A stretch of 64,000 nucleotides of DNA from Candidatus Magasanikbacteria bacterium CG11_big_fil_rev_8_21_14_0_20_39_34 (GTDB lineage Bacteria; Patescibacteriota; Patescibacteriia; Magasanikbacterales; UBA922), in NCBI GenBank assembly GCA_002787355.1, contig PCWN01000007.1, forward strand, positions 315,552 to 379,551. The letters are read 5' to 3'. The position numbers and the translations under genes were made by a program. Positions 937 through 64,000 of the stretch are shown in pieces. The notes under the pieces were generated by a model, which saw nothing but the letters and a program-made list of their open reading frames with translations, did no database searches and was not told where the DNA came from. How positions within the stretch are numbered: the stretch's first letter is position 1; every line of letters starts with the position of its first letter.

Positions 937-1013
937 GTGTGTTGTTTGGTCGCCCATGTTTGGTGGGTATACAATGGGAAAAGCACAGGCGACGCCTGGG
1001 TAATAGAGGTGAG

Positions 1014-1310
1014 TTAGACCAACAGAGCCCAGTCTACTACTGCAAAGAGCTGCCTTGGGTCAGAGCGATCCCCACACAAGGCAGAAAAGACTGGGAAGAG
1101 ATGTAGGAGGATACCTGGCCGATTGCGCAGGGCACCTTGGAAAAGTTGCTCCACGAGTGCAACCCGCAAGGCGGCGGCAGACCCTTCAGTGTCCAGCTCA
1201 CTCCCCAATGCGGCCCTTTGCAGCTCAACTTGAATTTGTGCGCGCCTTTGGGCGGTACACTCCAAGTCCCTTGCCTCTTGAAGGAGTCCCCAAATAGTCC
1301 GTTGCTGCAC
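1014..1310 (-). CDS. Hypothetical helical protein in GC-rich islet
   Basis: About 60% GC in a sampled line; AAGGAG (1316-1321) lies 5 nt before the GTG at 1310; no family recognised. Confidence 0.6.
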   Translation of the reverse strand: MQQRTIWGLLQEARDLECTAQRRAQIQVELQRAALGSELDTEGSAAALRVALVEQLFQGALRNRPGILLHLFPVFSALCGDRSDPRQLFAVVDWALLV

Positions 1311-1478
1311 AACCACTCCTTACCGGAAGTCCAGATCTCACTGGTTCTATATTCTACACGAAAGCCCCTCTATTGAAAAGCCCCCTTGTTTACAAAGTTT
1401 TTATTAAAAACTATAATGAAATAATAACAATTTTTTTACGCATAAAATAACTTCATAATTTAACTACTCCAAAATATC

Positions 1479-2270
1479 ATGTCAGAACAGCCTTTCTTTC
1501 AAGGAGAACAGCTTCTACAGGAAATGAATAAAACCCCCGGTGAGTGGAAGGTTTTTCTTAACCCCATTGCAGACGGACAAGAAACAAAAACAAGAGTTTA
1601 TATTACACACAAAACCCCAATTGCAGGAGGTGAGAATGAAAGTCGTGGAGCGTATGGCATTGTCTATTCAGTTGATGTTCAACTCGAAGGAAGTGAAAAA
1701 ACGTATCCTTTTGCACTTAAAGAATTTCATGATTACAAAAAAGATGAAACAAAAAATGCACTTGAAAACCATAGACGTGCTAAACATGCTGGTCTAAAAG
1801 TTTGGAATACCTATAGAATAAGTGAGGATGGAAGCAGCATACTCATGTCTACCGGAGATGTAAAAGGTTGGGAAATATTAGGTCAAAAAACAATACTTTC
1901 CAAAGAAAAACGTGAAACAACTCTCCCATTTGAAAATTTTCAAAACTTTCTTTCTGAATACTACTCCCAGGCGCAAAAAGCTGCAGAACATAATATTGCA
2001 ATTGCAGGTGACGTCCCTTTTTTAAAAATACGAGAACATGAACTGGACTTTGTATTAGGAGATATGGATTTACTGGAACCATCTTCACAGACAAACCAAC
2101 TTACAATCCAAAGACAGAATGTTCAGAACCTGCACTCAACACTGGTATATTTTCTTGAAAAGAATTTTGGAGAACAAGCCCAAATATATATTGACCAGTC
2201 CGAACAATATATCTCTCAAACTTTTTCTGGCCAAACCGTAAAAAAATATGGGGGCGAAGTTGAAAAATAA
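1479..2270 (+). CDS. Protein kinase-like fold protein
   Basis: RGAYGIVY Gly-loop, FALKEF beta3 Lys, IAGD catalytic-loop-like and LGDMD DFG-like motifs in the expected order. Confidence 0.55.
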   Translation: MSEQPFFQGEQLLQEMNKTPGEWKVFLNPIADGQETKTRVYITHKTPIAGGENESRGAYGIVYSVDVQLEGSEKTYPFALKEFHDYKKDETKNALENHRRAKHAGLKVWNTYRISEDGSSILMSTGDVKGWEILGQKTILSKEKRETTLPFENFQNFLSEYYSQAQKAAEHNIAIAGDVPFLKIREHELDFVLGDMDLLEPSSQTNQLTIQRQNVQNLHSTLVYFLEKNFGEQAQIYIDQSEQYISQTFSGQTVKKYGGEVEK

Positions 2271-2289
2271 TGTATAACATCACATCCTT

Positions 2290-2706
2290 ATGAACATGCA
2301 GGTCTCCCCTATTACGCAAGAAGACAAAAATTTTATTGAAGTTGGAATGGAAATGGCAAATGAGATTGTATATCATTACATACCAAGTTGGAGCGGCGGT
2401 GAAATAACGCACTTGCTTCTCGATCAGGTTTTTGCAGCATGGCTCAAAGAACAGACAGCCTATGAACCAAATATGATTGTCAATTCTCTGGGCATAGCAC
2501 TTGGTGAATACATGGTTGCTCAGCTTGGTATGAACTGGGTCATCGTGAACGACCAGTATGGCACTGCTATGGCTGTACGACATGAAAATCCTGAATGGAC
2601 AACTTTTCCTTTTGATGCTATACAAAAACGTATACAATCAAAGGAAGTTCCTTTTTTTGCTTTCCTTTTTGGGGATGCAGAAAAATGTATTCACAATAAT
2701 AACTAA
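2290..2706 (+). CDS. DUF3806-like protein
   Basis: LGIALGE..QLGMNWVIVNDQYGTAMAV pattern. Confidence 0.7.
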   Translation: MNMQVSPITQEDKNFIEVGMEMANEIVYHYIPSWSGGEITHLLLDQVFAAWLKEQTAYEPNMIVNSLGIALGEYMVAQLGMNWVIVNDQYGTAMAVRHENPEWTTFPFDAIQKRIQSKEVPFFAFLFGDAEKCIHNNN

Positions 2707-2710
2707 CCTT

Positions 2711-3166
2711 ATGAATGATCTCTTCGTTTTTTTAGAATCACAAAAACTGATCACACTCTCACCAAAAAGTAGTGAACCTTGGATTGCAAACGCATTTTAT
2801 GGAGTTACTCCGGATTGTACATTCTATTTTGTCTCCAGTACAGAAACAAAACACAGCCAACAAATCCTTCAAGATGGTACTGTTGCATTTAACATAGCCT
2901 GGTATAATCCAAACAACCATACCGACCGAAAAGCAGTACAAGGTGTTGGAACCTGTATGATAGCAAGCACACAAGAAGAAATTGAACTTGGGGTATCACT
3001 CCATAACTCACGTTTTCCAGAATTTGCAAAACGCATTACAAAGGAATGGATAGAAGATGACGCAAATTCCGGAAAAATATGGATTCTTAAACCAAGTTTC
3101 ATAAAATTTTGGAATGACGAGTTGTACAAGGATGATGAAAGTAAAGAATTTACCTTTGAAAAATAA
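2711..3166 (+). CDS. Pyridoxamine 5'-phosphate oxidase-like FMN-binding split-barrel protein
   Basis: PWIANAFY, YFVSSTETKHSQQI, AVQGVG; ATG 2711 follows the upstream stop. Confidence 0.8.
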   Translation: MNDLFVFLESQKLITLSPKSSEPWIANAFYGVTPDCTFYFVSSTETKHSQQILQDGTVAFNIAWYNPNNHTDRKAVQGVGTCMIASTQEEIELGVSLHNSRFPEFAKRITKEWIEDDANSGKIWILKPSFIKFWNDELYKDDESKEFTFEK

Positions 3167-3189
3167 AATGCCTTTCTCAGGCATTTTTT
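3165..3189. terminator. Bidirectional intrinsic terminator
   Basis: AAAATGCCT-ttctc-AGGCATTTT between convergent genes. Confidence 0.7.
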
Positions 3190-3257
3190 ATTGATGTGAT
3201 TTTCCCTCCGTGAACGCGGTCGGGTAGACATGCACGGAGGATGGGGGGGTGAGTGGT

Positions 3258-3503
3258 TTACACGGTGGTGCGAGTGCGTACTTCCTCGCGGATGCGGATC
3301 ACCTCCGTGATGAACGCATCCACCTGCGCCGGCGTCATCTCATGAAGGGTTTCCCAGAAGCGTACGATCACACCAATCTGGTTGTCGGTCCAGTTGGTGT
3401 TCATCTCGCAGGTTTTGAGGACCACACCATCCGGACCAATCAGCCGCACCTGGAATGCGACCGGTTGGTGGATGAAGTAGGTTACCCCCAGCTTCTCATC
3501 CAT
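3258..3503 (-). CDS. Hypothetical 81-aa protein in GC-rich islet
   Basis: About 58% GC in a sampled line, GC-ending codons, GGGAG 7 nt before ATG. Confidence 0.65.
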   Translation of the reverse strand: MDEKLGVTYFIHQPVAFQVRLIGPDGVVLKTCEMNTNWTDNQIGVIVRFWETLHEMTPAQVDAFITEVIRIREEVRTRTTV

Positions 3504-3532
3504 TATCGTTCTCCCGAGGCTAGACTTTCACT

Positions 3533-3562
3533 AGCCTATCACGCGGTATTTTATATTGTCAA
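3533..3562 (-). promoter_or_regulatory. sigma70-like promoter of the islet gene
   Basis: TTGACA-18-TAGGCT with extended -10 TG; AGGCTAG/CTAGCCT inverted repeat overlaps the -10. Confidence 0.55.
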
Positions 3563-3567
3563 ATAAA

Positions 3568-3601
3568 AAAGGTGCTTATAAGTTTACTTATAAGCACCTT
3601 T
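3568..3601. repeat. Perfect 16-bp inverted repeat
   Basis: AAAGGTGCTTATAAGT-tt-ACTTATAAGCACCTTT. Confidence 0.9.
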
Positions 3602-3709
3602 CAAAAATTTTATTTTTTGTCAATCTTTCTTTCCTCTTCCCTTGAGTATATAGAGATAGGGTGTTACAATACAGATAGGTCCTGGTACCCTTTCTTTTGT
3701 GTGAGCATT

Positions 3710-4669
3710 ATGAACAAAATTGTAGAATCCTGCTCCTATGTAGCAGAACACTCTTCCTTTATACAGATAGACTTACAAAAAATTGATGCGTTTTGTGATT
3801 CCTTTGCCCAAATACCGGCAAAACACTGGATTGATGCATCACCTATTGATCTAAAAGCCCTTTCCCCAAGGAACTGTGTTCATTTCCTTTTGGTTTTTAA
3901 CTCCATAAGTTTTTCCTACTGGGGTAATCCAAAATGGAAAATTGATTATCAAGGAAATGAGGTAGATGGTGCCTTTGGGATGCTTTCTGCTCTCAAAAAA
4001 GCCCATGAGAATGGGTTCCCTATTTTGGATCCTCATTATCTTGCTCAAATCTCAGAAAAAGACTTTGAAAAAATTTTGGAAGGAAATGTAGATATCCCCC
4101 TCTTTGAAGAAAGAAGACAAATCCTTCATGAAATTGGAAAAACATTAATTGAAAAATTTGATGGGAACTTTTTCAATGTACTTTCACAGGCAAATCAGAA
4201 TGCCCTTGAACTTCTTGATCTTATTGTAAAGAATTTTCCATCTTTTCATGACTCTTCAGAATACAAAGGAAAAACCATTTATTTTTATAAAAGAGCACAA
4301 CTTCTCGTGGCAGACATTTTTCAAGCCCTCCAAAATGAAGAACCTGGTAAACTTAAAAATATTTCTGAACTTACCGCCTGTGCAGATTATAAACTTCCCA
4401 TGGTATTACGAAGACTTGGTATCTTTTCCTACGAAAAAACACTTGCAGAAAAAATTGATAAAAAAATTGAGCTACAAAAAGATAGTGAAGAAGAAGTAGA
4501 AATTCGTGCCAATACTATATATGCAGTTGAAAAGATAAAAGAAAAGCTTCAAGAAAAAATACCTGGAAAATATTTATCTCTTCTTATCAATGATCATCTC
4601 TGGCTTTTGGGTCAAGAAAAGCACAAAGATGATAAACCCTATCATCTCACCCGGACAACTGCGTACTAA
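3710..4669 (+). CDS. Queuosine salvage N-glycosylase/hydrolase (QNG1/DUF2419 family)
   Basis: FYKRAQLLVAD, LTACADYKLP, EEVEIRA, NDHLW and C-terminal HLTRTTAY. Confidence 0.9.
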   Translation: MNKIVESCSYVAEHSSFIQIDLQKIDAFCDSFAQIPAKHWIDASPIDLKALSPRNCVHFLLVFNSISFSYWGNPKWKIDYQGNEVDGAFGMLSALKKAHENGFPILDPHYLAQISEKDFEKILEGNVDIPLFEERRQILHEIGKTLIEKFDGNFFNVLSQANQNALELLDLIVKNFPSFHDSSEYKGKTIYFYKRAQLLVADIFQALQNEEPGKLKNISELTACADYKLPMVLRRLGIFSYEKTLAEKIDKKIELQKDSEEEVEIRANTIYAVEKIKEKLQEKIPGKYLSLLINDHLWLLGQEKHKDDKPYHLTRTTAY

Positions 4670-4680
4670 AGGTCTCCTTT

Positions 4681-6066
4681 ATGAATCACGGAAAATCCAT
4701 ACAATTAAAACGAAATTCCAAAAAATTATTTTTCCTGATTCATGGATACACCGGAAGTCCAACAGATTTCAATGAACTTCCTGATTACCTCTCCACACAC
4801 CATGATGCAGATATTGAAATTATGCTTTTGCACGGTCATGGGACTAGGATTGAAGACCTAGATGCTTTACGGTTTCAAAACTTTTTGGATCAGGTAGAAG
4901 GAGGGCTACAAAAAAAACTGCAAGAATACGATCAAATTATCCTTGGGGGTGTTTCTTTTGGAGCGCAACTCGCCCTTATACTTGCATCTCGATACCCAGT
5001 ACAAGGTGTGTTTCATGTCTGTATTCCCTATCAACTTCGGTTCCCCTTTAACCTTTCCTTGCTGAGTTTAGTTGGATATTTTAAAAAATATTGGCCAAAA
5101 TCTATACCAAAAGATGAGAAAAAGCTTCGAGAAAAGGCATTTCACTACAAAGCAATGCATATCAATGGACTCCGTATTGTTCATGAGGCAAACCAAGAAA
5201 TAGAAAAATCTCTTGAAAATATCCGTTGCCCCGTTATTACGGTCCACTCCAGTAATGATCCCCTAAGCGACTATAAGGCTATTCACTCTCTTGAAGATCG
5301 CCTTCGTGTTCCCTATCAAAAAGAAATTCTTCACGACAAAAACCATAATATCTTTTTCTCGGAAAGCCGTTTTGAAGTCTATAAAATTATTCTCAATTTT
5401 TTTCAAAAAAACATTCAGACAAGAGAAAAAGATACTGTAGCCGCGATTGTCCCCGCCTACAACGAAGCCAAGCGTATTTCTTCTGTACTTACGGCACTTT
5501 CACAAACAAAAATTCTTGATGAAATCATTGTGGTAGACGATGGATCACATGACAATACTGAAGAAGTAGTATCCCATTTTCCATCCGTAAAATTTTTGAA
5601 AAATCAAAAGAACATAGGAAAAGCAGAATCTCTTCAGAGAGGCGTCGACTCCACTCAAGCGAATGTTCTCTTTTTTTGTGATGCCGACCTTCAAAACATT
5701 ACTCCGGAAATTATTACAGAGATTATCTCTCCCGTTCTGACACATGCATATGATATGTTTATAGGAATCCGAGACAATATTATGCAAAAAAGTGTTCCTC
5801 TTTTTGCAATAAATTCTGGCGAACGAGCACTTAGGCGTGAACTTTGGGAAAAACTTCCAAAATCTTTCAAACACCGGTACCGCATAGAAGCCGGCCTTAA
5901 CTTCATAGCAAAACATAAGGGAAAGGGATTTGGATATAAAAAATTTCCCTACTACCAAACGCTCAAAGAAAAAAAATATGGCTTTTTTAAGGGAACTATG
6001 TTACGATGGTGGATGAATTTTGACGTTGCTACTGCATATTTTTTGGCCCTACTTTTTAAAAAATAG
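4681..6066 (+). CDS. Fusion of alpha/beta-hydrolase (carboxylesterase-like) and GT2 glycosyltransferase
   Basis: N-half HGYTG, GVSFG, NDP, KNHN; C-half IVPAYNE, VVDDGS, FCDAD; one continuous ORF. Confidence 0.85.
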   Translation: MNHGKSIQLKRNSKKLFFLIHGYTGSPTDFNELPDYLSTHHDADIEIMLLHGHGTRIEDLDALRFQNFLDQVEGGLQKKLQEYDQIILGGVSFGAQLALILASRYPVQGVFHVCIPYQLRFPFNLSLLSLVGYFKKYWPKSIPKDEKKLREKAFHYKAMHINGLRIVHEANQEIEKSLENIRCPVITVHSSNDPLSDYKAIHSLEDRLRVPYQKEILHDKNHNIFFSESRFEVYKIILNFFQKNIQTREKDTVAAIVPAYNEAKRISSVLTALSQTKILDEIIVVDDGSHDNTEEVVSHFPSVKFLKNQKNIGKAESLQRGVDSTQANVLFFCDADLQNITPEIITEIISPVLTHAYDMFIGIRDNIMQKSVPLFAINSGERALRRELWEKLPKSFKHRYRIEAGLNFIAKHKGKGFGYKKFPYYQTLKEKKYGFFKGTMLRWWMNFDVATAYFLALLFKK

Positions 6067-6084
6067 TAGCAAGTCTTTTTTATT

Positions 6085-6702
6085 ATGAATTACTTTAACC
6101 ATATTTTGGCTCTTATCCAAAGTTTTTCAATTTTTGGGTATCTTATCATTTTTTTTCTTGCCTTCTTTGAATCATTTGCTTTCATAGGACTCATCATCCC
6201 CGGAAGTGTTGCGGTGATTGTAGGAGGTTTTTTGGTTGCTCAAGGAACACTTGACATTGGAGACCTTTTTTTCTTTGCCACTGCTGGAGCCATTTTGGGC
6301 GATAGTTTTAGTTTTTATATGGGAAAAAAGGGGCTTATTACTTTCAAGGAAGAAAATAAAATATTCAAACCAAGCCTCCTATATAAAGGAGAATTTTTTT
6401 TTAAGAAATATGGTGATAAAAGTGTCTTCATTGGTCGGTTTATTGGTTGGGTCCGCCCCATAGTTCCCTTTATTGCTGGTGTTTTTAATTTGGATAGAAA
6501 AACTTTCCTCCTATGGAATATTTTAAGTGGAATTTTTTGGTCTGCATCTCATATTGCCCTTGGATATTTCTTTGGTCAAGCGTTTCAAACACTTTTCAAG
6601 TGGTCATCACGAATTGGCATCTATACAGGAATTATTGTCGTTGTTTTTTTTCTTCTGTATCTTTTTAAGCTTTTTGTTGTAAAAAAAAGAAAACTTATCT
6701 AA
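6085..6702 (+). CDS. DedA family membrane protein
   Basis: FES..GLIIPG, GAILGD, GRFIGWVRPIVPFIAG. Confidence 0.92.
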   Translation: MNYFNHILALIQSFSIFGYLIIFFLAFFESFAFIGLIIPGSVAVIVGGFLVAQGTLDIGDLFFFATAGAILGDSFSFYMGKKGLITFKEENKIFKPSLLYKGEFFFKKYGDKSVFIGRFIGWVRPIVPFIAGVFNLDRKTFLLWNILSGIFWSASHIALGYFFGQAFQTLFKWSSRIGIYTGIIVVVFFLLYLFKLFVVKKRKLI

Positions 6703-6708
6703 CAAAAT

Positions 6709-6930
6709 ATGAAAAAAACTTGGTTTGAAAAAAGTGGCTGGATATACCCTCCTATATCTTTTGAAGGTACGCTCATGTTTTCTCTCTGTATTCTTTTTTG
6801 CTTTCATATCTTTTTCTTTTTTGACCAAAAGTCTCAGTCTATTTCAGATACACTTTATGCAGTGTTCCCCTACGTTCCCTCAATATTTCTTTTCTATACA
6901 TGGATAACATCAGAAAAAGAAAAAAAATAA
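6709..6930 (+). CDS. Small membrane protein
   Basis: Two hydrophobic segments; 6 nt after dedA. Confidence 0.6.
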   Translation: MKKTWFEKSGWIYPPISFEGTLMFSLCILFCFHIFFFFDQKSQSISDTLYAVFPYVPSIFLFYTWITSEKEKK

Positions 6931-6971
6931 CCTTACTTATTTATTCATTTTTATTTATTTAAAAATATAAT

Positions 6972-7334
6972 ATGGAACTATATTTGCAACCATTTAAAAA
7001 ATATGCCGTTTTTGAAGGACGTGCCAGTCGAGCCGAATACTGGGGCTTTATATTGATAATTTTTATTCTTGCCATAATTATTTTACTGCCAATTTCCCTT
7101 ATGACCGGGGCAGCATATGAAACGGTTGTGAATATCTTTGCAGTATTTCTTTTTCTTCCTTCTCTTGCAGTAACCGTACGAAGACTTCACGATATCAACA
7201 AGAGTGGCTGGTATGTTCTTTTAAACCTTATCCCTTTTATTGGAGGTCTTATTTTGTTTATCTTTGCAGTAAAATCTGGGGATCAAGGTGATAATAAGTA
7301 TGGCCCCTCACCAAAACAAATGACATCAACCTAA
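6972..7334 (+). CDS. DUF805 family membrane protein
   Basis: FEGRASRAEYW, VRRLHDINKSGW, NKYGPSP. Confidence 0.93.
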   Translation: MELYLQPFKKYAVFEGRASRAEYWGFILIIFILAIIILLPISLMTGAAYETVVNIFAVFLFLPSLAVTVRRLHDINKSGWYVLLNLIPFIGGLILFIFAVKSGDQGDNKYGPSPKQMTST

Positions 7335-7347
7335 AAAACACAACCTT

Positions 7348-7371
7348 AACCGCCCTAACGGGCGGTTTTTT
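7348..7371 (+). terminator. Intrinsic terminator
   Basis: AACCGCCC-taac-GGGCGGTT followed by a T-run. Confidence 0.85.
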
Positions 7372-8515: not shown

Positions 8516-8596
8516 ATTGGCAGTATTCCTCTTTTCTGGTATCATAAAAATACCTCTAGCATTAAAGGTACCTTATTCACTTCTTGATATTCCCAT

Positions 8597-17734: not shown

Positions 17735-17805
17735 TCGGGGATCGTCTAATGGTAGGACTCCAGGTTCTGGTCCTGGCTATCGGGGTTCGAGTCCCTGTCC
17801 CCGAG
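17735..17805 (+). tRNA. tRNA-Gln(CTG)
   Basis: Acceptor TCGGGGA/TCCCCGA, D-loop TAATGGTA, anticodon arm CCAGG-TTCTGGT-CCTGG, T-arm GGTTCGAGTCC; CCA not encoded. Confidence 0.96.
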
Positions 17806-18299
17806 CAAGCAAGGGTGAGCAGGCACGAGAGTGCCTGTTTTCTTGTATTCTGAGCCATTTTTTAGAAGTTCGGAAGTTGCGTTTAGCTTGGGCATCCATT
17901 CAGCCAAAAACTGATATGCTGGTGTCGCTGTTACGTGTACTTCGCGTTCAAGCGTGAGTTCCATATGAGAGAAAAAACGGGACAATAAGAGACGTTTTTC
18001 TTCGGGTGAGGTTTGTCTTCTCGTGCGTTAAATGCGAGCCTGTGAATCTCTAGCCCTACTTCGTAGTAGTTATCGACCCGATCTTCGAGATTTTCAAGCT
18101 GTTTCAAAATAGAGCGTTTCTCACGTTTGTAATCATCCGCTTTTCTCTTGTAATACTCGTCGGTTATCACGCCGTCCAGCCTGTCCTCGTACATTTTGTC
18201 GAGACGACCCTCGAGCCTCTCTATAGCCTCGTTGAGCTGTTTGCGTGATGTCATGGAATAATCCGTCTTGTCTTGGTTCTTTTCCTTGAGAGCCTCGTT
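17746..18299 (-). pseudogene. C-terminal remnant of a large serine recombinase
   Basis: RLDKMYEDRLDGVITDEYY coiled-coil, then frameshift to PEEKRLLLSRFFS..PAYQFL..ATSEL; no catalytic N-terminal domain. Confidence 0.7.
17866..17879 (+). repeat. 14-bp direct repeat, left copy
   Basis: AAGTTCGGAAGTTG identical to 24920-24933. Confidence 0.85.
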
Positions 18300-18343
18300 A
18301 TGTGATTGTTTATACAGACACCAGCGAGAAGAGAGGTCAAGCG

Positions 18344-18517
18344 TTATCGTTTATGCTTGGTCTTGTCGACCAATGTAAACTTCTTCGCTTCACCTGCATA
18401 CGGCGGAGCTGTTTCACCTTTGGTCAACGTGATTTCACGTCTAGTTCCTGACGGTCGATATTGACCCGAAACAGGTGCTTTGTGCCCCGTCGATGTTGTT
18501 ACCTTTTTGTTAGGCAT
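18344..18517 (-). CDS. YjzC-like small protein (57 aa, not in ORF track)
   Basis: Hand translation MPNKKVTTSTGHKAPVSGQYRPSGTRREITLTKGETAPPYAGEAKKFTLVDKTKHKR. Confidence 0.75.
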   Translation of the reverse strand: MPNKKVTTSTGHKAPVSGQYRPSGTRREITLTKGETAPPYAGEAKKFTLVDKTKHKR

Positions 18518-18559
18518 ACATTTTCGGTTAGCCGATGAATAAAACGGGTAGCGTCCGAC

Positions 18560-18584
18560 TTTTACTCCGCCCCGCGGAGTAAAA
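18560..18584. terminator. GC-rich hairpin between lexA and the YjzC-like gene
   Basis: TTTTACTCCGC-ccc-GCGGAGTAAAA. Confidence 0.55.
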
Positions 18585-18697
18585 ACCTCAATAGATTTGC
18601 ACTCCGGAGGGGGTAAAGTGAGCTGATCCGAGAGTATTCAAAGGGGGCTGAAATTATCTCGCTGGCATCTATATAAACAACTGATTGGAATGAACGC

Positions 18698-19297
18698 TTA
18701 CAAATTTCTGATGACCTTTACGACCACACCCTGCACGTCTACCTGTCTATGATACGTTGGCTCGTATTTCCCATTGGCCGGCTGTAGCCGTATCCTGTTC
18801 TGCTCTTGGTATATCCGCTTTAATGTCGCCTCGCTGTCTTCGAGAAGTGCAACGACCGTATCGCCATTGTCCGCACTCTTTTGCTGTTTTGCGATGATAA
18901 TATCTCCGTCGAGGATACCGTCTTCAATCATGGAATCGCCTTTGGCTCTTAGAGCGAATAGCCTACCTCGCAGAGCGTACTCCCTGGCGACTTTGACTGT
19001 TGTATCGTCGTATTCCTCAAGAGCTTCAATGGGTGAACCGCATGAAATAGTCCCTTTTATGGGAACCTCGATATAATCCGTGCGTTTTTTGGGCAGTGAG
19101 AGGCCTCTTTCTCGACGGTCGTACCGTTTGAGGAAGCCTTTATCCACCAAAGCCGAAACACGGTCGTGTACGGTTGATATGGCGGATAATTCAAAATGAT
19201 CTCGGATGTCATCGAAAGAGGGGGCGTACCCGTTCTGGTCGATGTACGAGGTGATGTAGTCGAGCGTTTCTCGTTGTCTTTTCGTCAGCGTGTTCAT
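18698..19297 (-). CDS. lexA: LexA repressor
   Basis: LTKRQ..GYAPS wHTH, Cys-Gly cleavage site (SCGSP), GDSM Ser, ATLKR Lys. Confidence 0.95.
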   Translation of the reverse strand: MNTLTKRQRETLDYITSYIDQNGYAPSFDDIRDHFELSAISTVHDRVSALVDKGFLKRYDRRERGLSLPKKRTDYIEVPIKGTISCGSPIEALEEYDDTTVKVAREYALRGRLFALRAKGDSMIEDGILDGDIIIAKQQKSADNGDTVVALLEDSEATLKRIYQEQNRIRLQPANGKYEPTYHRQVDVQGVVVKVIRNL

Positions 19298-19304
19298 GTG
19301 GTAT

Positions 19305-19375
19305 ATTATAACCGAAGAAAATCCGAATAGCAAATCCGAAAAAGTGTGGACAAGTGCTCAAAAAAGGAGTATCAT
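19305..19375. promoter_or_regulatory. Divergent lexA/mod promoters with three TTCGG repeats (candidate SOS boxes)
   Basis: Minus strand TTGCTA-17-TATAAT with TTCGG at 19340, 19327, 19316; plus strand TGGACA-17-TATCAT (19347-19375). Confidence 0.65.
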
Positions 19376-19405
19376 ATAAATCGTTAGACAAAACCCGTAC
19401 TAATT

Positions 19406-20953
19406 ATGCCTACACTCAACTGGATCGGTAAAGAGGCAGTAGTCAATCATGACAAAGAAGTCCCTTTCAAGCTCCTCAAAAAAGTAAAATCTCAATCAGT
19501 AGGTGAAAATTCACACAATCTGATTATCCATGGCGATAACCTAGAGGCATTAAAAGCATTAATGCCTTATTATGTTGGAAAAATAAAATGTATCTACATT
19601 GATCCCCCTTACAACACTGGAAACGAGGGGTGGGTTTATAACGATAAGGTTAATTCGCCAAAAATAAAAAAGTGGCTTGGAAAGGTTGTAGGTAATGAAC
19701 CTACAGACCTCTGTAGACATGATAAGTGGTTGTGCATGATGTATCCACGCTTAAAACTTTTGCGTGATCTTTTGCGTGATGATGGTGCTATTTTTATATC
19801 TATTGATGACAACGAACATTGTCATTTGAAAATGATTTTAGATGAAATGTTTGGCATTGAAAATTTTGTTACAAACATCATTTGGCAAAAAAAATATACA
19901 CAAAGTAATGATGCAAAATATTTTTCATCTACGCATGATTTTATAGTGTGCTATGCAAAAAATATTAAGAATGCGGATTTCAAAATAAATCTTTTAGAAA
20001 GAACGGAGAAACAGAACGCACGTTACAAAAATTTGGATAATGACCCACGGGGGCCATGGATGACACAGCCCCTACATGCAAAAAGTGGAAATGACAAAAC
20101 CTATACGTTTACATTTCAAAATGGTGTTAAATGGAAGCCCCCAGCAGGTACTTTTCCGAGATATAGTTTAGACACTTTGCGGAAGGCTGAGATGAACGGT
20201 GAAATATGGTTTGGAGCAAAAGGGACTGCCGTGCCACGTCTTAAAAAATACTTGAATGAAATGAAAGACGGCGTTATACCTAAAACAATTTGGCTTTATG
20301 ATGAGGTTGGTAGTAATGACGATGCAAAAAAAGAATTAAAGAATGTTTTTGACGACAATCCCTTTGCGACACCAAAGCCAACAAAACTATTGAAAACAAT
20401 TTTTAAAATTTCATCAGGGAAAGACGATATTGTATTAGATTCATTTGCTGGATCAGGCACTGCTGGACATTCAATTTTGGATCTCAATAAAGAAGACGGC
20501 GGAAAAAGAAAATTTATTCTTGTAGAAATGGAAGATGATATTGCTAAAAATATCACCGCCGAAAGAATAAGACGAGTGTGCAAAACAAATGAATATTCAG
20601 ATGGTTTTGAATATTGTGAGCTTACAAAACCACTTTTTGATGAAAATGGTCAAATAGAGAAAGAGTGTGACTTCAATCAGTTTGCCACATATATCTATTT
20701 TACCGAAACGCAGACAAACATCGACAAGGCAAAAATCAATAAGAATTTTATCGGTGAATACAGCGACACACATTTTTATCTTATCTACAAAGAGAAAGGC
20801 AAAAATGTTCTTACCAAAACTTTTTTACGACAGCTCAAAAAAGACGGTGCGAGAAAAATCGTTTATGCTGATCGCTGTATGGTTGACGATGATATTCTTG
20901 AAGAATACAACATTGTATTTAAGCAAATCCCTTACGAGGTAAAAGTTTACTAA
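19406..20953 (+). CDS. mod: Type III restriction-modification methyltransferase (Mod)
   Basis: IHGDNLEAL, IYIDPPYNTG, TPKP, VLDSFAGSGT. Confidence 0.93.
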   Translation: MPTLNWIGKEAVVNHDKEVPFKLLKKVKSQSVGENSHNLIIHGDNLEALKALMPYYVGKIKCIYIDPPYNTGNEGWVYNDKVNSPKIKKWLGKVVGNEPTDLCRHDKWLCMMYPRLKLLRDLLRDDGAIFISIDDNEHCHLKMILDEMFGIENFVTNIIWQKKYTQSNDAKYFSSTHDFIVCYAKNIKNADFKINLLERTEKQNARYKNLDNDPRGPWMTQPLHAKSGNDKTYTFTFQNGVKWKPPAGTFPRYSLDTLRKAEMNGEIWFGAKGTAVPRLKKYLNEMKDGVIPKTIWLYDEVGSNDDAKKELKNVFDDNPFATPKPTKLLKTIFKISSGKDDIVLDSFAGSGTAGHSILDLNKEDGGKRKFILVEMEDDIAKNITAERIRRVCKTNEYSDGFEYCELTKPLFDENGQIEKECDFNQFATYIYFTETQTNIDKAKINKNFIGEYSDTHFYLIYKEKGKNVLTKTFLRQLKKDGARKIVYADRCMVDDDILEEYNIVFKQIPYEVKVY

Positions 20954-55783: not shown

Positions 55784-55786
55784 ATA

Positions 55787-57541: not shown

Positions 57542-57616
57542 AATTATGATTAAATAAAGCAAGAATTTCATCTCTAGTATACCACACACTGCTAAAGAAC
57601 AAAATGGACCTTTTTT

Positions 57617-59002
57617 ATGAACCTCATGTATCGTAGTAAACAGATTCTTTTAATATTGGGAGACCTTCTTATTTTTGTGTTTTCTCTCTGGTTGAGTATT
57701 TCCGTACGACATTTTTCCGTACCCAGTTCTGATACATTTTTTCTCCATTTGCATTACTTTTTTTTCATTCTTTTGACAAGTGTTGTCATCAACTACATAA
57801 ATGGACTCTATGACTTAGATGATGACCTCCGTGGAAAACGACTCTTACGCAGAATATTGGAGACATCCAGTGTATCCCTGGTTGCAACCATTGCATACTT
57901 CTATGTAATAGATACTTCAGAGATTACCCCAAAGACGCTTCTCCTCCTCAATATTTTCTTTGCATACTCTCTCATCTTTTTTTGGAGAAATTTATTCCGA
58001 CATATTGCTCGCTTTGAAAGGCTTACCAATAATATTGTTTTTGTAGGTCTTCCCAAAGAAACAGAAGAATTGATACAACATATTGAAACAAAAGAAGGAA
58101 AAGGATACAAAGTTGTTGCTATCATCAACGAAATAAAAGAAAAAGATAAGTCATATCCTTGTGAAGTATACACAGATATTACAAAAATTCGCGCTATCAT
58201 CACTACAAAAAAAGCACATACTATTGTAGTGGCACCGCATCTCAAAAATACTCTTGATATCAATCGAGAGCTCTATGAACTTCTGTTTTGGGATGTTCGA
58301 GTAGTAGACCTTTCTTCATTTTATGAAAATATGATGGGGCGCGTTCCACCATTTACCTTTTCTGAAAGTTGGTTTTTGCAAAATTTGGGACACAAGGATA
58401 ATCCTATTTATTTGCGTATTCGTAAGGCATTGGATTATATTACCGGTATTCTTCTTTTTGGTATATTTCTCTTATTGCTTCCTGTTGTTGCTGTTCTCAT
58501 CAAGCTTGACTCAAAGGGGCCGGTTTTCTTTTCACAAAACCGAATAGGAAAATTTGGAAATACCTTTAGAATTTTCAAGTTTCGATCCATGTTTGCACTT
58601 TCCGAAGATGGAAGTGCAGAAGTTGATGGAGCACAATTTGCCATAAAAAATGACAAACGGGTGACCCGCATTGGGAGATTCCTCAGAAAAACACGCATAG
58701 ATGAACTTCCTCAATGTATTAATATTCTCAAAGGTGAACTCACACTTGTAGGTCCTCGTCCGGAACGTCCCCAAATTGTAGAAAAGTTGGAACTCCAAAT
58801 GCCATACTATTCCCTGCGTCACATAGTGAAACCTGGAATCACCGGTTGGGCCGTTATTCATCAAAATTATACGGATAATTTGGAAACATCCTTACAGAAA
58901 CTTCAATATGATCTCTATTACATAAAAAACAGATCCATTCTTTTGGACCTGTCTATTCTTCTACGGACGGTAAATGTTATCATGCGCTTTCGGGGGCAAT
59001 AA
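57617..59002 (+). CDS. Polyprenyl glycosylphosphotransferase (WcaJ/WbaP-like initiating transferase)
   Basis: FKFRSM, DKRVT, RIDELPQ, VGPRPE, KPGITGWA, DLYYI. Confidence 0.95.
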   Translation: MNLMYRSKQILLILGDLLIFVFSLWLSISVRHFSVPSSDTFFLHLHYFFFILLTSVVINYINGLYDLDDDLRGKRLLRRILETSSVSLVATIAYFYVIDTSEITPKTLLLLNIFFAYSLIFFWRNLFRHIARFERLTNNIVFVGLPKETEELIQHIETKEGKGYKVVAIINEIKEKDKSYPCEVYTDITKIRAIITTKKAHTIVVAPHLKNTLDINRELYELLFWDVRVVDLSSFYENMMGRVPPFTFSESWFLQNLGHKDNPIYLRIRKALDYITGILLFGIFLLLLPVVAVLIKLDSKGPVFFSQNRIGKFGNTFRIFKFRSMFALSEDGSAEVDGAQFAIKNDKRVTRIGRFLRKTRIDELPQCINILKGELTLVGPRPERPQIVEKLELQMPYYSLRHIVKPGITGWAVIHQNYTDNLETSLQKLQYDLYYIKNRSILLDLSILLRTVNVIMRFRGQ

Positions 59003-59009
59003 AACTATT

Positions 59010-59924
59010 TTACGCAATCCCCCATTCTTCTTTTAACTTTGCAATACCCTCCTCGAGCGCTATGGTAGGCTCCCAACCAAGCAATTCTTTTGCTTTTGTA
59101 ATGTCTGCTTCCATAAAACGAACATCTCCCGGGCGTGGATCAATGTTTACCGATTCTCCACCAATAAGTTTTACAATGTCATTTACGGAATGTGGATTAT
59201 GATTTCCAATATTTATGATTTCACCATTTCCAACATTTTCTTTTGTCATAGCAAGAATATTGGCACGGACCACGTCATTTACATGAGTGTAGTCTCGATA
59301 GTACTCTCCATCTCCACAAACGGTCATTGGTTCTGCATCTTTTACTTGTTTCAAAAATTTTCCAATAACCAATGCATACGCACCATTTGGATCACAATAT
59401 GGTCCATAAATATTAAAGTAAACAAGGCTTACGGTTTGGAGTCCATAGAGCCCTGCAAAAAGTCTACAATAATGTTCACCAATAAATTTGTGCAATGCAT
59501 ATGGGGCAATAGGAAGTTTTTCTAAGCCATCCTCTTTTACCGGGTAAACTTCTTGGTTTCCATAAGAAGAAGATGAGGAAGAAAATACCACACGTTTGAC
59601 TCCGTTGTCTCGAGCTGCCAAGAGAACTTGAAGCGTTCCATTTACATTGACATCATGAGTTTCTTCAGGATTTTCCACCGAAAAAGTCACACGAGGAAGC
59701 GCCGCCATATGAAAAACTCCGTCCACCCCTTGCATAGCCTTATCCAGATCTTCACGTTTACGAATATCCCCATCTATATAGGTAATATTTTCTTGGATAC
59801 GACTCTCCATCTTTCCACCCGCATAGTTATCCAATACAACCACTTCATGGCCTTGTTTTTTAAGTTCAATTGCAAGATTTGTTCCTATAAAACCAGCACC
59901 ACCGGTAATAAGATATTTTGACAT
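59010..59924 (-). CDS. UDP-sugar 4-epimerase-like SDR
   Basis: TGGAGFIG, SSSSSYG, PYALHK, YFNIYGP. Confidence 0.9.
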   Translation of the reverse strand: MSKYLITGGAGFIGTNLAIELKKQGHEVVVLDNYAGGKMESRIQENITYIDGDIRKREDLDKAMQGVDGVFHMAALPRVTFSVENPEETHDVNVNGTLQVLLAARDNGVKRVVFSSSSSSYGNQEVYPVKEDGLEKLPIAPYALHKFIGEHYCRLFAGLYGLQTVSLVYFNIYGPYCDPNGAYALVIGKFLKQVKDAEPMTVCGDGEYYRDYTHVNDVVRANILAMTKENVGNGEIINIGNHNPHSVNDIVKLIGGESVNIDPRPGDVRFMEADITKAKELLGWEPTIALEEGIAKLKEEWGIA

Positions 59925-59967
59925 ACATTCTTAAATTAAAGCTAAGTCGTATAAATGTAAGAGTTGA

Positions 59968-61272
59968 CTACATGGACCAATACCGCATGCCCTCATCTTC
60001 AATGTCCTGCTTTGAATACAGTCTTTTGATATCTACCAAAAGAAGATTTTCATGATTCATAAGAGCACGCAGATCCTTTGGGGTCATGTCTTTATATTCA
60101 TCATGTGCCACGGCTACAATGAGAGTATCTGCATTCACAAGATCTTCTTTTTTGGCAAGATGAATTCCATATTCGTGAAAAACCTCTTGCTCATCTGCAA
60201 TAGGATCATAAACAATAGGTTCAACACCAAAATCTTTGAGTTCCAAAATAAGTTCCGCAACCTTAGAGTTTCGAATATCTTTTACATTTTCTTTGAAGGT
60301 AATTCCCAGCACAGCAAATTTGGATTTACTGACATCTTTGCCCACTCGTACCATTTCTTTGATAATAGACTGTGCTATAAACTTATGCATGGAATCATTA
60401 ATTCCACGACCAGCTAAAATCATCTCCGGACGATGTCCAACTTCTTGTGCCTTAAAAGTAAGATAATACGGATCCACACCAATACAATGTCCTCCTACAA
60501 GACCTGGCAAAAATTTTAAAAAGTTCCATTTGGTTCCTGCTGCATCAAGCACATCATAAACAGAAATATCCATCTTAGAAAAGAGCATAGCAAGCTCATT
60601 CATGAGTGCAATGTTGATGTCACGCTGAGTGTTTTCAATTACCTTTGCGGCTTCTGCTACCCGAATGGATGCTGCTAAAAAGGTATTGGTAATGGCACCA
60701 TATACCTGTGCAATGACGTGTGAACTTTCTGCATCGGAGCCTGAAACCACTTTGGTAATTTTATCAATGGTATGTTCTTTGTCACCTGGATTTACACGCT
60801 CAGGTGAATATCCTACCCAAAAATTTTTCTTATGTGTTAAACCAGAAGTCTTCTCAAGAAGTGGTACACAAATATCTTCCGTAACACCCGGATACACCGT
60901 TGACTCAAACACAACAATGCTCCCCGCAGCCATGTTTGCTCCCACCATTTCACTGGCTCTTTTTACAATACCAAGGTCTGGAATATTATTTTTGTCTACC
61001 GGGGTTGGAACCGCCACAATAATGTAGCGCGCCTCTGAGATTCTCTTTTGATCACAGGTATAGTCCAACTGTACGGCTTTCAACTCATCTGAGGTAAGTT
61101 CATTCATCCTATCATACCCGGTTTTGAGTTGTTCTATCTTTTCTTGATCAATATCAAAACCTATCACATCAAAATGTTTTGCCAAAAGAACCGCCAGAGG
61201 AAGCCCAACATACCCAAGGCCTACCACACAAAGTTTCTCTTGTTTTGATTGTAATTGTTCAAAAGTTACCAT
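59968..61272 (-). CDS. UDP-N-acetylhexosamine dehydrogenase (TviB/WbpO-like)
   Basis: GLGYVGLPLA, ESTVYPG, SPER, KVIENTQRD, GLVGGHCIGVDPYY. Confidence 0.93.
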   Translation of the reverse strand: MVTFEQLQSKQEKLCVVGLGYVGLPLAVLLAKHFDVIGFDIDQEKIEQLKTGYDRMNELTSDELKAVQLDYTCDQKRISEARYIIVAVPTPVDKNNIPDLGIVKRASEMVGANMAAGSIVVFESTVYPGVTEDICVPLLEKTSGLTHKKNFWVGYSPERVNPGDKEHTIDKITKVVSGSDAESSHVIAQVYGAITNTFLAASIRVAEAAKVIENTQRDINIALMNELAMLFSKMDISVYDVLDAAGTKWNFLKFLPGLVGGHCIGVDPYYLTFKAQEVGHRPEMILAGRGINDSMHKFIAQSIIKEMVRVGKDVSKSKFAVLGITFKENVKDIRNSKVAELILELKDFGVEPIVYDPIADEQEVFHEYGIHLAKKEDLVNADTLIVAVAHDEYKDMTPKDLRALMNHENLLLVDIKRLYSKQDIEDEGMRYWSM

Positions 61273-61406
61273 AATTTTTTTCTAATATGGAGATATTATA
61301 CATAGAATGATAAACCATTTCAAGCCCCCTCCATCAAATAGAGCTTTCCCAGACAAAGTACGATCCCTCTTCACAAAAGTGCCTAAATTGAGTACCATAG
61401 GGACAT

Positions 61407-62540
61407 ATGAAAATACTTTTTCTCATTACCAAAGCAGAAGTGGGGGGTGCACAAAAAATGACCCTCACCCTCTCCAAAGAGCTCAAACGTCGTGGCCATG
61501 AGGTCATGCTTGGTTTGGGAAAAAATACCGGAACTTTTTTGATTGATGAGCTTCAAAAAGAAGATATTCCCTTTCATACCTTTTCATACCTCTCAAGAAG
61601 CCTGAATCCCCTTTTGATTTTTCAATTTAAAAAAGAATTTTCTCAGTTTCTCAGTAAGAATTCTTTTGATGTTATTCATCTCAATAGCTCCAATACACTT
61701 CCCGCTGCAGAAGTTACGAAGAAAAAAAGTCCCAAAACAAAAACGGTGTTCACCTTTCGAGGGCTTTCCTATCTTGACCCGGGTTCAAAAAAATATCTTC
61801 TCAAATTCTTTTTTCAAAAATTTTATCTTCACTACCTCCCATTTATTGACCATCCCGTTTTCGTAAGTCAGACCAATCGTGAATATGCAAACAAAATTAA
61901 CCTCTGCAAAAGCCAAGAGGTTGTTTACAATGCTCCCGAAGTAGAATATCTCTCAAAACAGGAATCCGAGGAAGAACTTGAACGGCTTATCCATAAAGAA
62001 AAAGGATTTCTCAGAGAAAAACAAATTTTGGGATCCATAGGAAGGCTAGCATACCCAAAAAACTATGAACTTATATTCAAAGCCCTTCCAAAGCTTTTAC
62101 AGACAAATCCAAATATTCTGTTTTTTCTTTTTGGAAGTGGACCGGAATTTCAAAATTATCAGTCCATCATTCAAAAAGAAAATCTTTCTGAAAACGTTTT
62201 TATCCTCCAGGCGGAAAACGCTGCACAATACCTCAAGGGATTTCATATTTTTGTCCTCCCATCCCTCTATGAAGGGCTCTCGATTACACTCATTGAAGCG
62301 CTCCAAGCGCATATTCCCATAGTTGCCTCAGACGTAGGAGGAAGCCATGAAGTTCTCCATGATGATACAAATCAGCTCTTTGAAAGTGGTCATGAGACTG
62401 CTTTGTGTGAAAAAATAAAAGCATTTTTGGATAATAGAATGCTTTTTGAAGAAACTATAGAAAAAAACAAGGTTTTTTCAAAAGATTTTGGTGTCAAAAC
62501 CATGGTTGAGGATTATCTGAAAATATACACAAAAAAATAG
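61407..62540 (+). CDS. GT4 glycosyltransferase
   Basis: GGAQ, IGRLAYPKN, PSLYEGLSITLIEA. Confidence 0.92.
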   Translation: MKILFLITKAEVGGAQKMTLTLSKELKRRGHEVMLGLGKNTGTFLIDELQKEDIPFHTFSYLSRSLNPLLIFQFKKEFSQFLSKNSFDVIHLNSSNTLPAAEVTKKKSPKTKTVFTFRGLSYLDPGSKKYLLKFFFQKFYLHYLPFIDHPVFVSQTNREYANKINLCKSQEVVYNAPEVEYLSKQESEEELERLIHKEKGFLREKQILGSIGRLAYPKNYELIFKALPKLLQTNPNILFFLFGSGPEFQNYQSIIQKENLSENVFILQAENAAQYLKGFHIFVLPSLYEGLSITLIEALQAHIPIVASDVGGSHEVLHDDTNQLFESGHETALCEKIKAFLDNRMLFEETIEKNKVFSKDFGVKTMVEDYLKIYTKK

Positions 62541-62571
62541 CTAAAATAAGATAAAAAATAAATTACATCGC

Positions 62572-62595
62572 AAGGCCTTGAAAAAGGCCTTTTTT
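62572..62595 (+). terminator. Intrinsic terminator
   Basis: AAGGCCTT-gaaa-AAGGCCTT followed by a T-run. Confidence 0.75.
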
Positions 62596-62598
62596 ATA

Positions 62599-62627
62599 TT
62601 GACAAAAGGGTCTTTTTTTGCTACAAT
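62599..62627 (+). promoter_or_regulatory. Near-consensus sigma70 promoter
   Basis: TTGACA-17-TACAAT with extended -10 TG. Confidence 0.85.
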
Positions 62628-62633
62628 AGCCAG

Positions 62634-62913
62634 TTATTGTATATAGTGTACAATAGAGTGTTCTTTACAAAATCTCAGGCTCTACAGGTAGGAAAAAATT
62701 GATATGCTGTCAATTTTTTCCTGCCTAGCTCTCTCCGCTGTTGCGCGAAGGGCGGAAGTAGGGCTTGGGTCCCACAGCATGGGTCCTTCTCCGGTAATTT
62801 CTCCGGAGTGACGTTACCTTCCATGCACGGTAGTAATACTGGTGGGAAAAAGATGCAATGTGCGCTCTATCGGGAAAGGTGCCCGAGAAAGCGTAGGATA
62901 CAGGAGTCTTGTC
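62634..62913 (+). ncRNA. Candidate structured 5' leader RNA with boxA-like motif
   Basis: Serial hairpins with G-U pairs valid on the + strand; TGTTCTTTACAA at 62659-62670. Confidence 0.5.
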
Positions 62914-64000
62914 ATGAACCGGTTTTTCACCCTGGTGGCGGCCTGCCTTTTTTCGTTCCTCCTGGGCGGCTGCTTGCCGTCCTTGGAGGACGAGTGCAAC
63001 TCGGACCGGGACTGCCCCCGGTTCGCCGAGGGGGCGACCTGCCGAGTGGGCATCTGCCTGCTCGGCACGGACGCCGCCCCGACCGACGCGGCGATGAATG
63101 ATGATGGTGCGGACGGGACGAACGTCCCGACCGACGCCGCCACCGACGCCGCCACCGACGCCACCCCCGACGCGGCGATGCCCGATGCCGAGGTGCCCGA
63201 TGCCGAGGTGCCCGATGCCGAGGTGCCCGATGCCGAGGTGCCCGACGCCACCCCCGACGCGGCGATGCCCGACGCCGCACTGACCGATGCCGACATTCCC
63301 GATTCCTCGCCACCGTGCGAGGACAGTCCGTCCTTCGGGGCGGACTGTGAGACGGGGATGCCCGGCGCCTGCGCCATCGGCACCATGGAGTGTGAGCTCG
63401 GTGAGCTGGCCTGCGTGCCCGCCACCGAGCCCACCGACGAGGTGTGCGACGGCCTGGACAACGACTGCGACGAGCAGATCGACGAGGGCTTCGACCTGCA
63501 GGCCGACCCCAGCCACTGCGGCGCCTGTGGCCGCACCTGCTCCTTCGAGCACGCCACCCCGGCCTGCGTGGCCGGGGTGTGTCAGATCGAGCAGTGTGAC
63601 CAGGGGCAAGTCGATCTCGACGAGCGGCCCGACAACGGCTGCGAGTACCACTGCACGCCCACCCAGGAGGGTGAGGCGTGCGGCGATGAGATCGACAACG
63701 ACTGCGATGGCTCGGTCGACGAGGAGTGCGCCTGCGATCCTCACACCTTCCAGCCGGCCCCCTGCAACGCGCAGGGTGAGGTCGGCGCCTGCCGCAACGG
63801 CACCTCACGGTGCCAGAACGGCAACGGCTCGCGTGTCGTCTGCGAGCCGTCGCAGCCCCAAGACGAGGCCTGCGACGGTATCGACAACGACTGCGATGGA
63901 AGCATCGACGAGGGCCTGCGCAACGCCTGCGGTGAGTGTGGCGAGGTGCCCGCGGAGACCTGCAACGGTCGCGATGACAACTGCGACGGGCAGATCGACG
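62914..64000 (+). CDS. Myxobacterial-type Cys/Asp-rich lipoprotein with MopE-like repeats (partial, runs off window)
   Basis: AGGAG 7 nt upstream; MNRFFTLVAACLFSFLLGGC lipobox; four E.C.G.DN.CD..(I/V)D repeats; DPSHCGACGRTC; no stop in 362 codons; about 73-75% GC in sampled lines. Confidence 0.88.
   Translation, partial: MNRFFTLVAACLFSFLLGGCLPSLEDECNSDRDCPRFAEGATCRVGICLLGTDAAPTDAAMNDDGADGTNVPTDAATDAATDATPDAAMPDAEVPDAEVPDAEVPDAEVPDATPDAAMPDAALTDADIPDSSPPCEDSPSFGADCETGMPGACAIGTMECELGELACVPATEPTDEVCDGLDNDCDEQIDEGFDLQADPSHCGACGRTCSFEHATPACVAGVCQIEQCDQGQVDLDERPDNGCEYHCTPTQEGEACGDEIDNDCDGSVDEECACDPHTFQPAPCNAQGEVGACRNGTSRCQNGNGSRVVCEPSQPQDEACDGIDNDCDGSIDEGLRNACGECGEVPAETCNGRDDNCDGQID
63131..63272 (+). 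repeat. Coding tandem repeats
   Basis: CCCGATGCCGAGGTG x4 (63181-63240, PDAEV); CCGACGCCGCCA x2 plus a variant; duplicated 29-nt flank. Confidence 0.93.

Follow-up and report, generated by a model that had tools for sequence, protein, structure and literature searches.

Genomic islets and phage morons are self-contained units of promoter, open reading frame (ORF) and terminator with a deviant base composition, and integron gene cassettes are mostly ORFan single-gene units with an imperfect palindrome (attC) at the 3′ side and a high turnover. The present work deals with three GC-rich islets in a 64,000-nt stretch (the window) of the genome of Candidatus Magasanikbacteria bacterium CG11_big_fil_rev_8_21_14_0_20_39_34 (GenBank assembly GCA_002787355.1, contig PCWN01000007.1, positions 315,552 to 379,551), and with the genome-wide set of cassettes to which they probably belong. 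The genome is termed here G000, a relative of the same genus G001, and the window corresponds to C4:315552–379551. As a preliminary description of the window had noted, each islet carries an ORF behind a well-spaced Shine–Dalgarno (SD) sequence, and the three islets together deviate strongly in composition (55–77% GC, against about 38% in the genome).

Like genomic islets and morons, the cassettes of G000 are single genes of deviant GC content between core genes, with a promoter-like site, an SD sequence and a terminator of their own, and they are patchily distributed among relatives. Unlike them, they do not lie in a prophage, they number dozens per genome and they carry a class-specific 3′ motif; moreover, the cassettes shared with a relative stay GC-rich at near-saturating silent divergence, whereas ordinary islets ameliorate. 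With integron cassettes they have in common the mostly ORFan single-gene unit, the 3′ palindrome or hairpin and the high turnover. However, the units are scattered, have their own promoters and form no array by integrase (no family-level integrase search was made), and in place of an attC core, none of which was recognised (no attC model was run), they have a 6-nt C-rich motif held single-stranded.

In Bacteroidia, according to published reports, bS21, bS18 and bS6 conceal the anti-SD sequence, and rpsU and prfB are the SD-bearing genes (PMC7797042, PMC9976891, PMC13000453). G000 resembles Bacteroidia in having core genes without SD despite a canonical anti-SD in the 16S rRNA, together with a small SD-bearing minority; it differs in that no bS21 was found and in having about 60 GC-rich accessory genes as its SD-bearing set. 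Tsurumaki et al. (2022) reported a frequent absence of bS21 and, for a subgroup of Parcubacteria, loss of the anti-SD motif, and the part of that report seen describes no GC-rich SD-bearing class (PMC9297842). No published description of such a cassette class was found in the literature. A C-rich element of the 3′ untranslated region (UTR) pairs with the SD of its own mRNA in icaR of Staphylococcus aureus (PMC3868564), and a contact between the 5′ and 3′ UTRs was described for hbs of Bacillus subtilis (PMC5737220). What the cassettes have in common with icaR and hbs is a strong-SD mRNA whose 3′ UTR exposes a C-rich motif, but their motif CCCACC is not the complement of GGAGG, with a mismatch in the middle of the pairing. 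Pairing of the tail with its own 5′ region was rejected, own pairs being no better than crossed ones (−16.6 and −17.1 kcal/mol, respectively; rank 23 of 45).

GC-rich genes and their translation signals

The G000 assembly comprises 1.18 Mb in 11 contigs with 38–41% GC; its completeness was rated at 99.17% and its contamination at 0.21%, and its population recurs across many groundwater and aquifer metagenomes. Eighty islands of at least 55% GC, a few of them rRNA, were dispersed over the large contigs (1.18 Mb). Eight GC-rich genes with Pfam hits served to train a codon model, which defined a GC-rich set of 63 distinct ORFs (65 entries, two being counted twice), and 967 AT-rich ORFs made up the core set. 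The GC-rich segment extended from about 50 nt before the start codon to 30–40 nt past the stop codon with sharp boundaries, and the units sat singly across the chromosome, neither arrayed nor grouped. A Pfam family was recognised in 11 of the 71 GC-rich ORFs scanned, some of whose frames were wrong, and hydrophobic N-termini were present in about 24 of the 63 proteins. All three islets of the window showed, as patterns only, promoter consensus matches and hairpin-plus-T-run terminators around a single ORF. A consensus promoter was discarded as a mark of the class, since it was not specific (3 of 63 GC-rich and 27 of 967 core ORFs).

The preliminary description had contrasted the islets with native starts lacking SD, and this contrast extends to the whole genome. 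An SD of at least 4 nt preceded 11.5% of the 967 core ORFs, which is below the 21.8% obtained at internal control sites, whereas it preceded 47.7% of the 65 GC-rich entries against 20.6% in the control (Fisher p = 6e-12). With start choice allowed, the figures for the GC-rich set and its control were 86% and 54%. An SD peak at −12 to −8 was seen in GC-rich ORFs only, and the core ORFs gave no SD signal. When plotted against the GC content at third codon positions (GC3), SD frequency was flat at 0.10–0.11 up to a GC3 of 0.5 and then reached 0.31, 0.32 and 0.56. The same stepwise rise was found in G000 and in G001, in agreement with the earlier proposal of a distinct GC-rich SD-bearing gene class.

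It had further been proposed that the signals and codons of these genes suit a different, high-GC machinery. The machinery encoded in G000 itself does not support this. The 3′ end of its 16S rRNA is GGATCACCTCCTTTCT, a canonical anti-SD, which was also present in G001 and in 29 of 30 16S 3′ ends sampled across the order. Its 41 tRNAs include G34 and C34 anticodons reading every GC-ending codon; the G34 anticodons match NNC codons exactly, and C34 species exist for CAG, GAG, AAG, CUG, UUG, ACG and AGG. No bS21 (PF01165) was found in G000, given the completeness cited above, and the anti-SD is therefore probably not hidden in the manner of Bacteroidia. The mean predicted folding energy of the start region (−30 to +30) was −12.0 kcal/mol in 42 GC-class genes versus −6.0 kcal/mol in 298 core genes. 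GC-class mRNAs may thus need an SD because their start region is about twice as structured, a need that the core mRNAs would not have. The position of the SD was kept in orthologous G000/G001 pairs while the surrounding bases diverged, which points to its use inside the resident cell.

The C-rich 3′ tail

The first 10 nt past the stop codons of GC-rich ORFs were rich in C (0.45) and poor in G (0.17). Within 40 nt of the stop, CCCACC was present in 29 of the 65 GC-rich entries of G000 and in none of the 967 core ORFs; the corresponding counts in G001 were 19 of 31 and 2 of 560. All 40 copies in the tail zones were in the sense orientation, with none antisense. The motif lay before a stable GC hairpin or within its loop (mean z-score of the folds −3.6), and an ordinary AT-rich terminator came after both. 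When 32 tails were folded to minimum energy, 227 of the 240 bases of the motif were left unpaired, compared with 52% of all tail bases. Like the SD, the motif was kept in orthologous G000/G001 pairs. Our best guess is that the tail is a class-wide 3′-UTR signal for an RNA-binding partner.

Several other functions were considered for the tail. The tract is C-rich and G-poor as a Rho rut site would be, but the genome yielded no Rho RNA-binding domain. Nor was there support for a distinct G-rich RNA able to pair with the tail, all clusters of the motif on either strand being located in cassette tails or in coding DNA. A repeated mobile module was also rejected, given that most tails have only the 6-nt motif in common, a few of them being paralogous modules. 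These few belong to local clusters of GC-class genes at C4:162010–162810 and C4:176599–181748, with near-identical 3′ modules of 70–90 nt (85–93% identity); one small cassette protein has 84% identity to its counterpart in G001, far more than the 60% that is the median for the core. In G060, from another family of the same order, the GC-rich genes lie in one block of about 70 kb (G060:C1:115000–185000), not dispersed and without the CCCACC tail. The block is probably a large integrated element, and the single block and missing tail ruled out the use of G060 as a replicate of the class.

Persistence in a relative and rival explanations

A total of 653 kb (60%) of G001 was analysed; this genome has a GC content of 43%, and the median identity between its core proteins and those of G000 is 60%. 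It contained 31 GC-rich ORFs, to which the SD peak was confined, and the class with its GC content, SD and tail is repeated in this congeneric genome. Islet 3 is syntenic in G001, in the slot between a glycosyltransferase and a flippase. Its product is 51% identical to the G001 orthologue and that of the flanking transferase 53%. At four-fold sites under conserved residues 100 of 209 positions differ, 57 of these by G↔C swaps, and GC3 is 0.85 in G000 and 0.92 in G001. The existence of a sister orthologue that retains a high GC3 despite divergence, which had been put forward as a check in the preliminary description, is thereby established for this islet. About one substitution per silent site was estimated for the pair from the four-fold counts, similar to the AT-rich neighbour, and a divergence as large as that of the flanks suggests vertical descent. 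Pooling the nine GC-class pairs gave 529 four-fold sites, of which 52% differ and 58% are G or C in both genomes, the values for 432 core pairs being 63% and 13%. Drift toward the host composition was thus not seen in relatives, islet 3 and eight shared cassettes having kept a high GC3 with 48–52% of four-fold sites changed. Matches in the G001 sample were found for 13 of the 63 GC-class proteins versus 572 of 1087 core proteins, and all 13 GC-class hits sit in DNA of 0.49–0.69 GC, versus a core median of 0.43. Judged by these comparisons, the units turn over faster than core genes, yet the shared ones stay GC-rich.

We consider it probable, with some reserve, that the three islets belong to a class of resident accessory cassettes that extends over the whole genome, translated by the bacterium's own ribosomes and not directed to a host, whose GC content is held. 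The class would consist of about 60–80 sharply bounded GC-rich gene units. The bacterium probably transcribes these from AT-rich promoters of the ordinary kind, and its own ribosomes probably translate them via SD/anti-SD pairing, a route that the AT-rich core genes do not appear to use. The units may be old foreign acquisitions, islet 3 coming from a myxobacterial-type family, and what keeps their silent-site GC high would be selection or biased fixation, acting most plausibly on the mRNA, and not a recent arrival; the C-rich tail would be the recognition signal of the class. More tentatively, expression in this lineage could be two-tiered, an idea that we regard as possible but doubtful. An SD-less AT-rich core would be accompanied by a persistent, fast-turnover set of about 5% of the genes, kept GC-rich by selection and acting as sole clients of the anti-SD, with the single-stranded CCCACC read by a dedicated RNA-binding factor. 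Such a set would be a compositionally insulated post-transcriptional regulon, possibly of stored or stage-specific mRNAs.

Foreign genes are expected to drift to the composition of their new genome, and here dozens keep 55–70% GC in a background of 38–43% despite about one substitution per silent site; moreover, the classic ribosome-binding site is used by no genes other than the cassettes. If the proposed class is real, it offers a natural system for asking what conserves the anti-SD in SD-poor lineages, it indicates that gene-specific forces can override a genome-wide mutation bias, and its SD and CCCACC tail mark those accessory genes that probably have the greatest influence on how uncultivated ultra-small bacteria live. 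Annotators should be warned not to discard such islets as contamination.

A rather unlikely alternative, contained in the preliminary description, is the recent and repeated capture of single genes from a present high-GC host or neighbour, the GC content and SD being simply not yet ameliorated. It accords with the restriction of islets 1 and 2 to the species (no match in 40 relatives searched with the proteins or in 60 searched at the DNA level), with the far lower retention of the GC class in the G001 sample, with the myxobacterial family of islet 3 and with an amino-acid composition that looks GC-driven. Yet no donor was found. The products of islets 1 and 2 each match themselves alone among 5.8 billion protein clusters, and an exhaustive HMMER search with islet 2 gave 12 non-self hits, all to long repeat proteins and judged spurious, the six that were scanned belonging to unrelated families (HAMP arrays, BNR propellers). 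On these searches islets 1 and 2 are species-specific ORFans without a detectable donor. Further, islet 3 and eight shared cassettes have remained GC-rich through about one substitution per silent site, and unrelated cassettes have a common tail motif that orthologues keep and that a mixture of donors would not supply. Capture from the present host fits poorly with both the neighbour-like divergence of islet 3 from its syntenic orthologue and the missing relatives of the other two. We likewise think it improbable that the cassettes are mobile and swapped as units within the lineage, the CCCACC and hairpin being an attC-like site of DNA recombination or uptake and the GC coming from a GC-rich reservoir or from GC-biased conversion. 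High turnover, sharp unit boundaries, a strand-specific motif with a hairpin 3′ of unrelated genes and the few paralogous tail modules at 162 kb and 176–181 kb of C4 would suit such units; their single, scattered placement without arrays, the similarity of most tails in six nucleotides only and the apparently vertical descent of islet 3 would not. In addition, no convincing flanking direct repeats or target duplications were found at the three islets, and no recombinase is nearby. As had been stated before, the ORFs flanking the three islets include no integrase or transposase; these genes (encoding an inositol monophosphatase, a DUF3806 protein, a queuosine-salvage protein and a GT4 glycosyltransferase) are housekeeping or uncharacterised, and they are not part of a prophage.

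Host-directed expression, the central proposal of the preliminary description, would mean that the units are made for the translation machinery of a high-GC host and exported as mRNA or DNA. The SD and GC-rich codons are confined to these genes and many of the proteins have hydrophobic N-termini, as this proposal would have it, but it gained no positive support and is in our opinion very improbable. The bacterium's own anti-SD and tRNAs suffice, the SD is kept in orthologous pairs, and the units are scattered over the chromosome, neither grouped nor bordered like transferred DNA, with native-type promoters before them and native terminators after them. No transfer signal was found, and islet 3 encodes a lipoprotein whose own signal peptide and lipobox equip it to be exported by the cell that makes it. 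Of the earlier interpretation, then, the distinct class and the myxobacterial-type family of islet 3 have stood; the foreign machinery is not supported, and the capture from a present host fits poorly. Finally, an assembly chimera or high-GC contamination deserves practically no credence. The assembly is metagenome-derived, with runs of N elsewhere, but neither junction of islet 3 contains such a run, and AT-rich DNA borders the islet on both sides within a single gapless stretch. That its AT-to-GC junction is real is shown by independent contigs from three other groundwater samples (X2, X3 and X4), which span 62700–62914 with 0 differences and supply, for this junction, the support that had been sought earlier. 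The orthologue in the same slot of G001 and the low contamination estimate also speak against a chimera.

Some observations weigh against the view of resident cassettes with a held GC content. The amino-acid composition of the class is also GC-shifted, a pattern more reminiscent of long-lasting mutation pressure than of selection on codons. Neither five more distant homologous loci nor a genome of another family (0 of 73) showed the CCCACC tail, so the tail would postdate the GC/SD trait. No relatives of islets 1 and 2 were found, and the evidence on age therefore covers islet 3 and the shared cassettes. The coding status of islet 1 is the least secure of the three; its AlphaFold2 (AF2) model has a predicted local distance difference test (pLDDT) score of 60 and its codon score is under the cut-off for the class. 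MopE homologues of other candidate phyla radiation (CPR) members are no closer to islet 3 by bit score than those of Myxococcota, and several independent acquisitions of MopE within the order are possible; bit scores were used for this comparison because the repeats make an alignment unsafe for a tree. A 170-nt contig from an RNA library (X16) falls in the coding sequence (CDS) of islet 3, but it cannot show transcription.

The three islets and other features of the window

Islet 3, on the plus strand, has 0.65–0.77 GC from 62950 up to the window end (100-bp windows). In 1-kb bins, 63001–64000 has 0.707 GC and the remaining 63 bins 0.32–0.48. The islet is 2.8 kb long in total and reaches C4:381175, beyond the window, where AT-rich DNA (0.20–0.39) is next. 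Its putative promoter (62599–62627) is TTGACA-17-TACAAT with TG, matching 11 of 12 consensus positions and nearly identical in G001; two perfect TTGACA boxes had been reported for the islets, and these are located at 62599–62604 and, on the minus strand, at 3562–3557. There follow a structured 5′ leader (62634–62901, about 54% GC) with a hairpin at 62686–62726, the SD AGGAG (62902–62906) 7 nt ahead of the ATG at 62914, for which G001 has GGGGGAGG 6 nt ahead of its ATG, and the CDS. The first 1087 of its 2658 nt (62914–64000) are in the window and it stops at C4:381122; the CCCTCCCACCAATC tail, hairpin and terminator (L001:3624–3778) lie beyond the window.

The product is an 885-aa lipoprotein with an LGGC lipobox, nine MopE-type Cys-rich repeats (nine PF11617 stretches, E = 1.5e-45) and a C-terminal FGE-sulfatase domain (PF03781, E = 4.7e-9). 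Outside the lineage 74 related loci were found, nearly all in Myxococcota and with 29–43% identity to islet 3, which makes a myxobacterial-type origin plausible, as had been suggested before. Islet 3 shares the PF11617 repeats, the PF03781 domain and the lipobox with the MopE/FGE lipoproteins of Myxococcota, but it differs from them by this low identity, by its place in a glycan-synthesis locus of a 38% GC genome and by its structured leader. MopE homologues were present in 14 of 40 relatives searched, where they likewise form GC-rich islands.

The leader of islet 3 measures about 280 nt. In the alignment of promoter and leader with G001 the mean column identity was 75%, far above that kept at the gene's silent sites. 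Of the 64 predicted pairs, 10 were changed on both sides yet remained paired, in a comparison of two sequences only. No Rfam family matched the leader, and screening of the islets and the DNA next to them for known RNA families, with gathering or E ≤ 1 thresholds, gave no hit. In a DNA search of 60 relatives the promoter part alone matched, and a pattern scan of metagenomes gave no homologue beyond the seed in 80 of at least 119 matches. The leader is considered a candidate new cis-regulatory RNA. The promoter itself, extended as TTGACAAAAGGGTCTTTTTTTGCTACAAT, had matches at 85–93% identity in many genomes of the family, which suggests that its shape, including the T-run spacer and the −10 box of TGn type, is strongly conserved. 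Within the CDS, 15-nt tandem repeats at 63140–63270 encode a (P-D-A-E/T-V/A) run; independent contigs from three samples all end within these repeats, and their copy number may therefore vary in the population.

Islet 2, on the minus strand, reaches 0.56–0.59 GC at 3201–3500, against 0.29–0.45 in the surroundings (200-bp windows). Its promoter-like site (3533–3562) consists of TTGACA, an 18-nt spacer and TAGGCT with TG upstream, a weak −10 box that the promoter scan did not list. The SD GGGAG (3511–3515) stands 7 nt ahead of the ATG at 3503, and the ORF (3258–3503) encodes an ORFan of 81 aa with a GC3 of 0.76. The C-rich tail (3205–3257), ACCACTCACCCCCCCATCCTCC, has the hairpin CCTCCGTG/CACGGAGG and is without an exact CCCACC; the bidirectional intrinsic terminator after it (3165–3187) is common to islet 2 and the convergent native gene 2711–3166. 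A model of the protein built with no alignment was confident (pLDDT 82.5; predicted template modelling score, pTM, 0.72) and gave a beta-beta-beta-alpha-alpha arrangement. No Pfam family and no PDB fold hit at E ≤ 0.001 pointed to its function, and its best atlas TM-scores, to half-domains of ROK-type kinases, were at most 0.54.

Islet 1 is also on the minus strand, with 0.555–0.58 GC at 1001–1300 against the same surroundings. A promoter-like site in AT-rich DNA (1351–1379; TTTTCA-17-TAGAAT, 9 of 12, a consensus match only) and the SD AAGGAG (1316–1321), 5 nt ahead of the GTG at 1310, precede an ORFan of 98 aa (1014–1310), or of 100 aa if read from the GTG at 1316. In its C-rich tail (945–1013) CCCACC occupies 967–962 inside a hairpin with arms at 996–988 and 955–948, and a bidirectional intrinsic terminator (924–940) is common to islet 1 and the convergent inositol-monophosphatase gene. 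An empty-site comparison for islets 1 and 2 met with a rearranged neighbourhood in G001; the slot past the orthologue of 2711–3166 is AT-rich in G001 and G004.

A further GC-class ORF of 94 aa on the minus strand (C4:315320–315604), with the SD AAAGG and a tail with CCACCCACCCCAC, straddles the window start, so that part of a fourth islet lies inside the window (1–53). Elsewhere in the window, at 17735–20953, a tRNA-Gln (CTG) is followed by a 107-aa ORF without a Pfam family, a LexA-type repressor (S24 peptidase, 48% GC) and an N6/N4 DNA methylase, and this region may be an element integrated at the tRNA-Gln gene.

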